Virus record (IMG/VR): IMGVR_UViG_2531839661_000003
Length of the DNA: 5,162 nucleotides
Direction: 5' to 3' (one strand)
Origin: a virus
Lineage: Duplodnaviria; Heunggongvirae; Uroviricota; Caudoviricetes
Every line of letters begins with the position of its first letter. The first letter of the stretch is position 1. The notes beneath the pieces were generated by a model. It had not been told where the DNA came from. It did no database searches and saw nothing but the letters and a program-made list of their open reading frames with translations. Both the position numbers and the translations under genes were made by a program. Positions 1,541 through 5,162 of this stretch are shown here, one piece after another.

Positions 1541-1738
1541 ACATCGCGCCCCGGGATTGCCGGAAGGAGACAAAAACCGTACAGTATGCGCGGGTGCCTT
1601 TGGCTGATGGCCGGAGGGAACACCTGAAGGCCGGATGTGAAAAGGCCCCGGACAAAACATTCATGTTTAACCCGAGGCCTGACTTTCGATCTTCAGCAAA
1701 TTGAAGGTTAGCGCCTCTCCGTAAAAGGAGCAAGCGTT

Positions 1739-1879
1739 ATGTCGCAAAAACCGTTAAAAACCACCGTGATTTGTATCACGGTAGTGCTCATTACCTGGAT
1801 CACCCACAGTTCACTGTGCGAGTTCCGGTTCCGGATAGCGGGCGCGGAGATTGCGGCGTTCTTACAGTGTAAGCGGTAA
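1739..1879 (+). CDS. Hok/Gef-family type I toxin-like small membrane protein (46 aa), not in the supplied ORF track
   Basis: ATG 1739 is preceded by AAGGAG (1725-1730) with an 8-nt spacer; stop TAA 1877-1879. Translation: MSQKPLKTTVICITVVLITWITHSSLCEFRFRIAGAEIAAFLQCKR. It has an N-terminal hydrophobic helix (VICITVVLITW) followed by the Hok-family signature SLCE[FI]R[FY]R...E[IV]AAF[LM]; compare plasmid R1 Hok ...[21 protein letters not shown] and chromosomal HokA ...SLCEL...ELAAFLACK (recalled, not searched). Confidence 0.6.
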   Translation: MSQKPLKTTVICITVVLITWITHSSLCEFRFRIAGAEIAAFLQCKR

Positions 1880-1976
1880 GAAACCGTGGCGGAGGAGTGT
1901 ACCTTCCCCGCCGACCGGTTGCTGAGGGTGATCAGCCGGATGGCACCTTTTTAACATCAATAAATCACAAATTTTA

Positions 1977-2010
1977 CCGCAGGCCGGGAAACCGGTCCTG
2001 CGGTTTTTTT
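1977..2010 (+). terminator. Rho-independent terminator: ~11-bp GC-rich stem with one bulge, GAAA loop, followed by T7
   Basis: CCGCAGGCCGG (1977-1987), loop GAAA (1988-1991), CCGG-T-CCTGCGG (1992-2003), TTTTTTT (2004-2010). The reverse complement of the right arm is CCGCAGGACCGG, which matches the left arm apart from one bulged base. Confidence 0.7.
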
Positions 2011-2023: not shown

Positions 2024-3736
2024 ATGGCAGTCAGAATATCGGGTGTGCTGAAGGACGGGGCCGGTAAGCCGGTACCGGGATGCACGATAGAGCTGAAAGC
2101 GCGACGCACAACGGAGACGGTGATTGTCACCACGGTGGCGTATGGTCAGCCGGGGGAAACCGGCAGTTACAGTATGGATGTTGAGCCGGGGTTGTACCGG
2201 GTGACGCTGAACACGGAAGGGTACGCGCCGTCATATGTGGGTGACATTCTGGTGAAGGCGGACTCTGCACCGGGAACGCTGAATAAATTTCTGATGGACC
2301 TGGAGGACGCACAGTATTACCCGAAAGCCCTTGCAGAGCTGGAAGCGGTGGCCGCGGAAATCCTGAAACGTGCGGAAGCGTCAGCGGCGAGTGCAGAGGA
2401 AGCGAAGAAACGGGCAGAGAATGCGCGGGGACCGAAGGGGGATAAGGGAGACACCGGGCCACAGGGTATTCCCGGGCCAAAAGGCGATACCGGCGAGCGT
2501 GGGCCAAAGGGTGAGCGTGGTGAGACAGGCCCACAGGGGGTACAGGGGCCACGGGGTGAAACCGGACCCGTGGGACCGCAAGGAGAGGCGGGTATTCAGG
2601 GGCCTGCTGGTCCTGCGGGCCCGCGAGGCGAAACCGGAGCCAGAGGCGAAAAAGGAGAGCCGGGAGATCCCGGAGGACCTCCGGGACCAAAAGGTGACAC
2701 TGGCCCCAGAGGGGAGCCGGGGCCTCAGGGCCCGGCAGGTCCGAGAGGACCAGCCGGAGAGAGAGGGCCGCAAGGATTGCAGGGTGTGGCAGGGGAGAGA
2801 GGCGATACAGGTCCGGCTGGTCCACAGGGCGCTACCGGCCCCAGAGGACCACAAGGGGAAAAAGGGGATAAAGGTGACCCCGGCCCGGCAGGCCCTGCCG
2901 GTGAGCGGGGGCCGAAAGGTGAGCGAGGTGCAACGGGCCCCGTGGGGCCGCAGGGGGCGACGGGGCCAAAGGGCGATAAAGGCGATAAAGGCGAGAGAGG
3001 AGCGCAGGGGCCAGCGGGTCCGGCAGGGAAGTCTGCCAGTCTGGATGATATTGCCGACAAGGAGGCGTTTATTCGTAAGCTTGGGGTGGCAAGAGCTTAC
3101 GGGCGTGATCTCAAAACAGGAGAAGGGGAGTGGACGACAGAAGAGTTCATCAACTGGCTGAAATCACAGGGTGCTTTTGAGGGTCCTTACTGGGTAATGA
3201 CCACGACGCGGTTACTCAACAGTAACCGTGTGATCACGGATGTGGATACTGATTTGGGTAAGAAAAAAATCACCCTGAGAGGATGCGCCATTGAAGTGAT
3301 GGGGTCATGGGAGAATGCGATAGTCCGGATCAGCGCAGGTGATGACCGGCCCTGGGATATGTTTTATGGCACGGACTGCACCTGCGTGGTCAGCGGCAGT
3401 ATAAAGAGCTATGAGTGGCGGTTTAACTACACTTCCATCAGACGCCCCTCAACAGCGAAACTGGATGTGAACGGATGGGAGCGGGATGAGGCAACAGGAA
3501 GAATACGGCAATGGGGGCAGAAACAAGTTGTCCGGCCAACCAGTGACGGAGACACACATACCATCTATTTCCCGATAGCTTTTCCGTCAGCGGCGCTGAA
3601 TGTCATTGTATCACCGGTAGGTTCACCGGGAAATTTCACGGGGTATGCCCTTTCAGAACCGTTGCTGAAGTCGGTAATACTGACGGTCAGTAAGGACACA
3701 TACGGGCTGTTTTACTGGGAGGCCATTGGCTACTGA
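2024..3736 (+). CDS. stf: Side tail fibre protein (Stf) with lambda-Stf-like N-terminal domain, collagen-like Gly-X-Y tract and divergent C-terminal domain
   Basis: N-terminus [28 protein letters not shown]...[10 protein letters not shown]...[10 protein letters not shown] is near-identical in pattern to the lambda Stf N-terminus ([28 protein letters not shown]...YSMDVEYGQY...SQPGTLNDFL, recalled). Residues ~136-337 are uninterrupted GXY triplets apart from one break. Strong SD upstream; stop TGA 3734-3736. Confidence 0.9.
2429..3034 (+). repeat. Collagen-like Gly-X-Y triplet-repeat coding tract inside stf (28 triplets, one extra Pro, then 39 triplets)
   Basis: The translation runs [25 protein letters not shown]...[12 protein letters not shown] with Gly at every third residue. 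The single register break is GGP-P-GPK at nt ~2675-2689. A local 9-bp tandem duplication GGCGATAAA occurs at 2972-2980 and 2981-2989. Confidence 0.85.
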
Positions 3737-3745: not shown

Positions 3746-3958
3746 ATGGAACAGTATTTTTTTTCGCCATCAAATAATGCGTTTTATCCGGCCTCGCTTC
3801 GTTCGGTTTATGAGGCTGCCGGAAGCTGGCCGGAAGACTGTGTTGTTGTGGCGAGTGCCGTGTATAAGGTCTTTTCTGCCAGTGCAGCCCCGGCAGGAAT
3901 GGAGAGGTGTGTGGGGCCGGAGAATATGCCGATCTGGAGAGATGCGGGGCAACGATAA
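3746..3958 (+). CDS. Tail fibre assembly protein-like N-terminal fragment (70 aa), probably a truncated remnant
   Basis: Placed immediately after stf with a coupled SD, as tfa genes usually are. The translation MEQYFFSPSNNAFYPASLRSVYEAAGSWPEDCVVV... resembles the N-terminal pattern of one Tfa family (...FYP...AGSWP-DG-V-VS...), from memory only. It ends at TAA 3956-3958 after 70 codons, far shorter than a typical Tfa (~190 aa). Confidence 0.4.
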   Translation: MEQYFFSPSNNAFYPASLRSVYEAAGSWPEDCVVVASAVYKVFSASAAPAGMERCVGPENMPIWRDAGQR

Positions 3959-3966
3959 GCGGGGCA

Positions 3967-4644
3967 ATGATGGTAAATATTAAAAACTTCATCTGGTATA
4001 CGCCGGAAAATCCGGATGTTCCGGGGGCGATGTACCTGAAATCAGAGGATGGTCAGGACTGGTATGAGTGTCTGCCCTTGTTTTCGCCGGATACGCTGAA
4101 AGTGGTTTATAACAGTGCAGGGGTTATCACTGATATCAGCAGGGACGTACAGGCGCTGTGGCCAGCGAATCAGAGTATTGCGGAGGTGGCGGATACGGAA
4201 GAAAACCGCAAAGCTGATATCTCGGGGCGGTGGGGCTTTGACGGGGAGAAAATCACGGATCTGCTGACCGCGGAGAAAGCGCGCGGGATGAAGGGCGATG
4301 AAATAAACGCGTGGCGTAATGCGATGGAGGCGGCGAACTACACGTTTGAGCACAATGGCCGGAAATGGGACTACGGGAAGTCAACGCAGACGCGTCTTGA
4401 GCCATCGGTGGCGGCAGCGAAAGCGGGGAAACTGCCGGAGGCGTTTTTCTGGACGGATGCGGAAAACAATGATGTGCCGGTGACAGCAGAAGAGCTTATT
4501 GCGCTGAGTGAAGCGGCAGAGCAGGCGATGTTCACCAAAGGGATGGAAATCCACATTCGCCAGCGCACCATGAAGAAGGACCTGGAATCGCTGAGCAGTG
4601 CGGATGAGATCCTGGCATACAGGGTTGGCTGGGCACAGGAATAA
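3967..4644 (+). CDS. tfa: Tail fibre assembly protein (Tfa), Mu gpU / P2 gpG-like N-terminal domain; alternative upstream GTG start at 3907
   Basis: MMVNIKNFIWYTPENPDVPGAMYLKSEDGQDWYE...PDTLKVVYNSAGVITDISRDVQALWPANQSIAEVADTEENRKADISGRWGFDGEKI parallels Mu U / P2 G (...LYSDDGKNWYE...ADTLKMVYDHNGVI...[32 protein letters not shown], recalled). ATG 3967 is chosen by homology; the frame is open from 3868 and the ORF track uses GTG 3907. Stop TAA 4642-4644. Confidence 0.75.
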   Translation: MMVNIKNFIWYTPENPDVPGAMYLKSEDGQDWYECLPLFSPDTLKVVYNSAGVITDISRDVQALWPANQSIAEVADTEENRKADISGRWGFDGEKITDLLTAEKARGMKGDEINAWRNAMEAANYTFEHNGRKWDYGKSTQTRLEPSVAAAKAGKLPEAFFWTDAENNDVPVTAEELIALSEAAEQAMFTKGMEIHIRQRTMKKDLESLSSADEILAYRVGWAQE

Positions 4645-4913: not shown

Positions 4914-5162
4914 TCAGTGAATAAACCAGTCGTCCGCTGTTTCCCAGACATTTTGAAGTGTTTCTTGTACAAACTCTTGCGCGGATTCTTTATCCACGGC
5001 TCTTAAAATAGTGAGTCCATCATTGCTGGCAGATTTAACGATCACTTCTACATCGTCATAACGCTTACTGATTTGTCGCAGCATTTCTTGCTGTAGGGCA
5101 GGAATAGAACCTTTTGGCATTTTGCTGATTTTTTCTTTAGCGATACAGATCTCAATTCGCAT
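4914..5162 (-). CDS. DinI-family (DNA-damage-inducible protein I-like) protein, 82 aa; start codon is the last three bases of the window
   Basis: Minus-strand translation [82 protein letters not shown] aligns along its length with E. coli DinI (MRIEVTIAKTSPLPAGAIDALAGELSRRI...ETWESADDWF, recalled). Its promoter would lie beyond base 5162. Confidence 0.8.

Follow-up and report, generated by a model that had tools for sequence, protein, structure and literature searches.

A probable hok/sok-type toxin–antitoxin cassette without a mok frame in the J–stf moron slot of an Escherichia coli lambdoid prophage

The stretch of DNA analyzed here (the window; 5,162 nt, IMG/VR record IMGVR_UViG_2531839661_000003) matches over its full length, at 99.4% identity, a lambdoid prophage adjoining btsS/btsR in E. 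coli P15-385. At about 1557–2010 it very probably carries a self-contained type I toxin–antitoxin cassette of the hok/sok type, placed in the moron slot between the tail gene J and the side tail fiber gene stf. In phage lambda this slot, between J and orf-401 / the side tail fiber gene, is occupied by lom, as a first-pass annotation made by a model from the letters of the window had correctly stated. J ends at 1540 and the tail fiber open reading frame (ORF) starts at 2024, and the gap of 483 bp between them (1541–2023) is 100% identical in P15-385, where PGAP annotates the “Hok/Gef family protein” WP_000078856.1 and no RNA gene.

The toxin gene is a 46-codon ORF with the translation MSQKPLKTTVICITVVLITWITHSSLCEFRFRIAGAEIAAFLQCKR, in which the first-pass annotation had recognized a good translation start, a hydrophobic stretch, and the signature SLCEFRFR...EIAAFL of Hok-family toxins, and all of these are present where it had placed them. 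The profile search that it had proposed confirmed the family, with Pfam PF01848 (HOK_GEF) scoring 46.9 bits against a cutoff of 22 (E 2.1e-12, profile positions 8–42 of 42), and PHROG 251 matched at 73.5 bits. A Shine-Dalgarno sequence (AAGGAG, 1725–1730) lies 8 nt 5' of the ATG, the hydrophobic N-terminal stretch covers about residues 8–22 (best 15-residue Kyte-Doolittle mean 2.17), and an alignment with R1 Hok and HokC shows that all seven residues for which more than 80% conservation in Hok has been reported are kept (M1, C12, T14, L26, C27, E28, and E37, which are M1, C16, T18, L30, C31, E32, and E41 in the numbering of the conservation logo). Judged by its sequence, the ORF is a member of the Hok/Gef family. 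The exact peptide is RefSeq WP_000078856.1 and is also listed as unique peptide #1568 in alignments that supplement a recent Hok survey (Escalera-Maurer et al., bioRxiv 10.1101/2025.08.07.668861), which observed toxicity for 42 of the 45 homologues in its tests. Two relatives from the same subfamily of 46-aa Hok peptides, 72_1589 and 72_1621, were in that toxicity panel and are not among its three named non-toxic members.

Upstream of the toxin gene, Rfam model RF01794 matches positions 1592–1750 on the plus strand over its full length (model positions 1–157) with 50.8 bits (E 1.7e-9), which is under its gathering score of 59. Although this model is named “sok antitoxin,” it covers the leader of the hok mRNA up to the hok AUG in hok-sense orientation and not the Sok strand. 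Since it hits the genuine loci used as controls on the hok-sense strand (K-12 hokC with 118.3 bits and R1 type with 87.2 bits), the match in the window would mark a hok mRNA leader that starts with GGGUGCC at 1592. This heptamer is invariant in 48 homologues, the distinct mRNAs of the 46-aa subfamily that make up our covariation alignment (A3). The positions of the −35 and −10 hexamers and the 6-nt gap between them and GGGTGCC recur before homologous modules in unrelated flanks (after lom as well as in other surroundings, in Salmonella and E. albertii), suggesting that the module brings its own promoter. At the other end, the intrinsic terminator described by the first-pass annotation is real: its 12-bp stem with U7 lies 98 nt after the hok stop codon and is at the same time located where the J transcript ends, just before stf. 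The 3' untranslated region (UTR) hairpin shows the strongest covariation in the alignment (GC24/AU23; GC25/AU17; AU30/CG15) and, by analogy with R1 work (summarised in PMC9841398), likely protects the 3' end of the processed hok mRNA. Homology to a related module of Stx phages spans exactly the region from the promoter to the fbi-like element, stopping at query position 407 (window 1947), which supports these module boundaries.

The first-pass annotation had found no Sok-like antisense RNA by eye. This holds for reading by eye, but a Sok homologue emerges by alignment to K-12 sokC: the minus strand of 1630–1735 matches, in alignment, the K-12 sokC region as well as the sok region of an R1-type plasmid, promoter positions included, and window position 1697 is the aligned position of the annotated sokC +1. 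On the strength of this alignment, the antisense region is homologous to sokC. Opposite the hok Shine-Dalgarno sequence, and overlapping it, lies the −35 element of the putative sok promoter, and AGGTTA as well as the TTG of this −35 element are conserved across the 48 homologues. The predicted Sok RNA folds (−22.8 kcal/mol, z = −3.1) into an unpaired 5' tail and a terminator hairpin, GGCCUCGGG...CCGGGGCC, with a UUUU stretch ending near 1637. In the hok mRNA, the complement of this 5' tail is found in the 5' arm and loop of a Sok-target (sokT) hairpin.

The layout of leader, small ORF, and 3' hairpin had reminded the first-pass annotation of hok-type mRNAs, and the folding that it had called for gave the expected long-range closure. 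The full-length RNA (1592–2010) folds with a minimum free energy of −178.7 kcal/mol (z = −7.2 versus shuffles) and 17 pairs between its 5' and 3' ends, by which a tac-like element at the 5' end is held by a fbi-like element near the 3' end (1592–1608 with 1931–1948). In this fold, GAGGC (1674–1678) is bound by positions 1645–1649 of a ucb-like element and the ribosome-binding site (RBS) of hok lies inside a hairpin. In a 3'-truncated RNA (1592–1928), the 5' end flips onto the ucb-like element and the sokT hairpin (−20.9 kcal/mol) appears, which forms only in such truncated or in nascent RNA. The RBS hairpin is at its full extent (−11.8 kcal/mol) both in the full-length fold and with the Sok-complementary stretch blocked, and it shrinks to 3 bp once sokT forms; its outer stem persists in 97% of alignment cells over the homologues, with one-sided changes only. 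The GAGG of sokT (1674–1677) is the counterpart of the mok Shine-Dalgarno sequence of R1 and hokC. The sokT loop UCUUCAGCA contains UUCA, a YUNR U-turn tetramer, and the other alleles that were inspected have a YUNR tetramer as well, though this motif is low in information.

Both predicted folds are supported by covariation across the 48 related mRNAs, with slid pairings as controls. Pairs specific to the full-length fold reach a covariation score of 0.150 (at most 0.062 for slid pairings) and those specific to the truncated fold 0.145 (at most 0.075). The tac–fbi helix has 3 pairs changed on both sides and covaries at alignment columns 10–12 / 360–362, and RNAalifold recovers it with the covarying pairs GC29/CG19 and GC40/AU8; the tac–ucb helix has 2 doubly changed pairs and the sokT helix has 5 pairs with changes on both sides among homologues. 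The proportion of paired positions is likewise high for the tac–fbi helix (91.8%), the tac–ucb helix (95.4%), all pairs specific to the full-length fold (83.8% versus 33% to 48% when slid), and all pairs specific to the truncated fold (86.6% versus 38% to 51%), though these percentages are inflated as the tested structures were derived from the sequence of the window itself. All elements of the cassette are listed in Table 1.

Table 1. Predicted elements of the hok/sok-type cassette in the window.
Element	Position	Strand	Basis
hok promoter, predicted (−35 TTGCCG 1557–1562, 17-nt spacer, −10 TACAGT 1580–1585)	1557–1585	+	Position and conservation
hok mRNA, predicted full-length (about 418 nt)	1592–2010	+	5' end: start of RF01794 match and GGGUGCC; 3' end: terminator
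tac-like 5' element	1592–1608	+	Pairs with 1931–1948 in full-length RNA and with 1633–1649 once the 3' element is gone
ucb-like element, alternative tac partner	1633–1649	+	Predicted folds and covariation
Sok antisense RNA, predicted (about 60 nt, 3' end approximate)	1637–1697	−	Alignment to K-12 sokC; fold
Sok-target (sokT) hairpin (44 nt, loop 1691–1699 UCUUCAGCA)	1674–1717	+	Fold of truncated RNA
sok promoter, predicted (−35 TTGCTC 1733–1728, 17-nt spacer, −10 TAACCT 1710–1705)	1705–1733	−	Alignment
RBS-sequestering hairpin (CUCC 1717–1720 with GGAG 1727–1730, extended by UAGCGC/GCGUUA)	1709–1739	+	Predicted fold
hok toxin coding sequence (46 aa)	1739–1879	+	Pfam PF01848 match, conserved Hok residues, RefSeq identity
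3' UTR hairpin, likely protective 3' end of processed mRNA	1883–1921	+	−18.7 kcal/mol and covariation
fbi-like fold-back element (AUCAGCC...GGCACC)	1931–1948	+	Pairs with 1592–1608
Intrinsic terminator of hok mRNA (12-bp stem, then U7)	1977–2010	+	−23.9 kcal/mol

A switch between tac/fbi and tac/ucb pairing and the sokT hairpin has been described for the hok/sok system of plasmid R1 (summarised in PMC9841398), and it is along the lines of this paradigm that we infer the transcript ends, toxicity, Sok expression, and biological role of the cassette. A weak constitutive promoter would give a hok mRNA of about 418 nt in which tac is clamped to fbi, so that the Sok target is unformed and the RBS is kept in its extended hairpin, making for an inert and stable RNA. 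Slow trimming from the 3' end back to the hairpin at 1883–1921 would remove fbi, upon which tac would move to 1633–1649, sokT would form, and the RBS hairpin would shrink to 3 bp. As long as the prophage is present, Sok (transcribed from about 1697 to 1637 on the minus strand) would pair with its target and silence the hok mRNA. Once the supply of Sok stops, be it by loss of the prophage, by a transcription block imposed by an infecting phage, or by induction, the 46-aa Hok would be made and would damage the inner membrane. Candidate roles of such a cassette would be prophage addiction (the classical one, with killing of cells that lose the prophage), abortive infection, or assistance in lysis as for the hokW-sokW locus.

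Could the cassette be something less than a working hok/sok system? That the ORF arose by chance, in a spacer where nothing but the J transcript's terminator is real, can be practically dismissed: nothing but the short length of the ORF speaks for it, and it is refuted by the profile match (Pfam E 2e-12) and by covariation, besides conservation in hundreds of genomes. A number of observations weigh against an intact system, and some of them (the subthreshold scores, the weak promoters, and the lack of mok) would speak for a decayed and non-functional relic, comparable to several chromosomal hok loci of K-12 and with motifs that are unexpressed and unregulated leftovers. Both NCBIfam models score the peptide below cutoff (HokA equivalog NF007290 with 42.2 versus 89 bits, Hok family NF007279 with 41.2 versus 73 bits), and the peptide therefore belongs to a divergent subfamily and is not an equivalog of HokA–E or R1 Hok. 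The RF01794 score of the leader is likewise subthreshold, and the same is true of two further members of the subfamily (51.1 and 35.6 bits), so that this model at its gathering score misses the 46-aa subfamily (35.6 to 51.1 bits versus 59). The promoters match the consensus poorly (8 of 12 positions for hok, 6 of 12 for sok) and were assigned purely by homology because a consensus scan of 1400–2150 listed neither of them. At the level of RNA structure, the pairing percentages are inflated as explained above, and base-pair probabilities have the RBS formally paired in every modelled state with no clear on/off contrast, so that the proposed difference between on and off comes down to hairpin length. 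Finally, a search of all three frames in the window and the 48 homologues found no conserved mok ORF. The hok frame is closed upstream by a TAG (1709–1711) 9 codons before the ATG, no ATG, GTG, or TTG follows the GAGG at 1674–1677 at Shine-Dalgarno spacing (5 to 9 nt) in the window, and the sole leader ORF reaching the hok region there has 7 codons, a TTG start, and no Shine-Dalgarno sequence; among the subfamily mRNAs, 26 of 48 have no leader ORF reaching the hok start at all and the remainder are inconsistent. As positive controls, gef-type and R1-type loci do show an ATG after GAGG, with Mok as an in-frame extension of Hok of 69 to 71 aa. One may add that the adjacent J carries a 2-nt frameshift, by which the prophage may be degenerating. 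Against decay, however, the ORF is unbroken and keeps the full set of conserved Hok residues, no RNA element is missing and each is maintained by compensatory changes across the 48 homologues, and the subfamily members in the published toxicity panel were outside its non-toxic set. The absence of mok extends to the entire subfamily, copies from inducible Stx phages among them, and is therefore a trait of the lineage rather than a lesion. On balance, we consider it quite improbable that the cassette is a relic.

If the cassette is a functional hok/sok system, its main job, instead of prophage addiction, could be to aid or time phage lysis, with read-through from J interfering with the convergent sok promoter so that Hok accumulates late in induction. 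What makes this role plausible is that the cassette points the same way as J and stf of the late tail operon and that J is not separated from the hok start by any terminator. There is also a precedent: hokW-sokW of Sakai prophage 5 (Sp5) is a working type I system that speeds lysis and doubles phage release, and after mitomycin C its sokW RNA vanishes and HokW appears in a RecA-dependent manner, with a deletion halving phage release (Takada et al. 2021, PMC8621323). However, these data concern a gef-like 51-aa Hok encoded elsewhere in Sp5 and not the 46-aa type, and in other prophages the subfamily is found at the ends rather than within a tail operon, so that lysis assistance is for us a tentative proposal. 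Abortive infection as a defence of the lysogen would require that host transcription shut-off by an invader depletes the short-lived Sok. Prophage moron slots often hold defence genes. Moreover, R1 hok/sok on a high-copy plasmid lowered the plating of T4, according to the account given in a paper citing that work. Yet the module matches no PADLOC defence model, and the Hok survey saw no enrichment of hok near defence systems (10.1101/2025.08.07.668861), which leaves a defensive main role rather unlikely in our eyes.

Returning to the reading as a functional hok/sok cassette, its lack of mok raises the point of how Sok could act. In our models, blocking the Sok-complementary stretch of the truncated RNA lets the full RBS hairpin re-form, and this change in hairpin length suggests that Sok may act directly on hok translation. 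Without Mok, Sok could work through cleavage of the duplex, through release of the 3' arm of sokT that re-forms the full RBS hairpin, or through both. The second peculiarity of the subfamily is the variability of the Sok target. For 19 mRNAs whose remaining sequence matches the window at 94% identity or more, the mean pairwise difference per column is 0.254 in 1681–1703 versus 0.028 outside, and the inner stem and loop of sokT (1679–1705; columns 93–117 of the covariation alignment), which equal the 5' tail of Sok, vary about 9 times as much as the remaining module sequence in these close relatives. The changes in this inner stem-loop are compensatory, and the flanking sok promoter is nearly invariant. 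The 19 close mRNAs hold five stem-loop alleles, most of them able to fold, and 88 modules hold 26 alleles. One contig (IMGVR_UViG_2757320580_000004, our locus L079, 2362–3709) carries three tandem hok modules of the subfamily, each with another sokT allele, and another (L081) carries two. We found no support for the notion that co-resident modules avoid a shared sokT allele, with 3 of 13 pairs sharing one versus 9.7% at random in a small sample that possibly includes duplicate contigs. It is conceivable, if speculative, that the 46-aa subfamily is Mok-free in the sense that Sok pairs with the 5' arm of sokT, frees the 3' arm (1700–1717), and thereby rebuilds the RBS hairpin, and that diversifying selection on the inner stem-loop has created many specificity alleles that keep co-resident prophage copies independent of each other.

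The interpretation given by the first-pass annotation is partly supported: its identification of the module stands, but its view that this would be an unusual cargo does not. At least 80% of the region is held by 202 of 5426 complete E. coli genomes, mostly at 95% to 99% identity, and phage 1720a-02 has it at 94.6% identity in the same J-hok-stf layout as the window. Some 200 records of Stx-type phages contain a 77%-identical copy (about 230 bp after lom in the copy that was inspected). Across IMG/VR contigs, 302 stretches encode relatives of the 46-aa Hok; 30 of 36 viral loci with the window-type allele have it between J and stf, and the Stx-type allele follows lom in 37 loci. In line with this, hok has been reported to be enriched in prophages, a Hok peptide being encoded by 9.3% of Escherichia phages (10.1101/2025.08.07.668861). 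The module is thus already known, and it is real yet ordinary because it is common at the J–stf position and already annotated in RefSeq and catalogued. What the present analysis adds is coordinates for the RNA parts (Sok, tac, fbi, and target hairpin) of a cassette that RefSeq annotates as a coding sequence only. Furthermore, a subfamily without the mok frame that is essential in the R1 paradigm is a possible small and testable addition to hok/sok biology; both this absence of mok and the variability of the target loop offer modest leads, and the discovery value is small.

The subfamily also occurs outside lambdoid tail regions (L008, L009, L010, and L084, with flanking ORFs judged by eye). 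A Salmonella copy lies 3' of a 413-aa ORF that by eye resembles a P2 gpD-type tail/late protein and 5' of a DNA methylase-like ORF, with ihfA nearby. The copy of S. diarizonae (L010) adjoins ihfA and pheT, a copy of E. albertii adjoins serS, and that of L084 lies beside a small cysteine-rich ORF read by eye as Ogr-like. Enterobacterial hok loci were also seen on contigs labelled Planococcaceae, Vagococcus, Ferruginibacter, Streptomyces, Oscillibacter, and Veillonella (L006, L007, L011–L013, and L016), most likely reflecting assembly or binning contamination of public records.

Around the cassette, the window encodes the 3' part of J (with Pfam domains Ig_GpJ_C and Phage_Tail_Tip), the 483-bp gap, the side tail fiber, two ORFs resembling tail fiber assembly genes, and a DinI-like gene on the opposite strand. 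Compared to the intact gpJ gene of P15-385, the window lacks 2 nt at about 451–453, which turns GGGGAGGCGG into GGG-A-GCGG (region 445–520). J is read as two ORFs (40–492 and 518–1540) because this loss shifts the frame, and the split is either a frameshifted pseudogene or a sequencing error. The side tail fiber (2024–3736, 570 aa) has a long collagen-like Gly-X-Y run (window 2440–3030; Pfam Collagen in three stretches) flanked by a prophage tail fiber N-terminal domain and a gp53-like C-terminal domain. The next ORF (3746–3958, 70 aa) matches only the N-terminal part of tail fiber assembly families (phrog_188 positions 43–106) and is followed by one encoding a DUF4376 protein (3967–4644, 225 aa); the two may be a split or mosaic pair of tail fiber assembly genes. 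A weak match to Rfam RAGATH-33 at 3923–4023 (23.9 bits versus a gathering score of 120.4, E 0.1) is taken as chance. The DinI-like gene (4914–5162, minus strand; Pfam DinI with 63.9 bits) lies at the prophage end, with the P15-385 host genes btsS/btsR at most 600 bp beyond.

Compared to known systems, the cassette shares most of its parts with hok/mok/sok (parB) of plasmid R1, namely a Hok/Gef peptide, the tac–fbi clamp, tac–ucb pairing after 3' trimming, a Sok-target hairpin with GAGG, a Sok antisense RNA encoded in cis (about 60 nt) whose promoter overlaps the hok Shine-Dalgarno region, and a terminator about 30 nt after fbi. It differs from R1 in its peptide (35% identity, 46 versus 52 aa), in lacking mok, in its carrier (prophage versus plasmid), and in its RF01794 score (50.8 versus 87.2 bits for R1 type). 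The hokC(gef)/mokC/sokC locus of K-12 is alike in a leader and antisense region that can be aligned, among them the CCCGAGGCC box as well as the hairpin of the Sok terminator and the +1 of Sok, with a peptide identity of again 35%. Unlike the window, with its stop 9 codons before the hok ATG and no start codon after GAGG, hokC has an in-frame mokC extension of 69 aa.

A further close relative is the 46-aa Hok encoded after lom in the Stx phages 933W, VT2-Sakai/Sp5, and others (catalogue 72_1589). It belongs to the same subfamily, with 77% DNA identity from promoter to fbi and 61% peptide identity, and also has no mok and a moron slot in the tail region; unlike the gene of the window, it follows lom instead of replacing it, is succeeded by genes other than stf, and has different alleles of the Sok-target loop. 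This peptide is annotated as hypothetical (L0129/H0145) or, misleadingly, as “MokW-like host killing.” We considered whether the module might be hokW-sokW, as the PHROGs label “MokW-like” implies, and rejected this, since the published primers show that hokW encodes a gef-like 51-aa peptide (MKQQKAM...; PMC8621323). HokW is thus of a different subfamily and from a different locus than the Hok of the window, though hokW-sokW does provide an example of such a locus taking part in lysis and phage release, and the label on the 46-aa type is a family name only. It follows from these primers that the Stx2 prophage Sp5/933W carries two different hok loci, the studied hokW-sokW and the unstudied 46-aa type after lom (L003, 3171–3311). 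As for lambda itself, its lom moron and the hok of the window occupy the same slot between J and the side tail fiber gene as independently acquired cargo, and the lom product is an outer-membrane protein unrelated to a toxin–antitoxin system.

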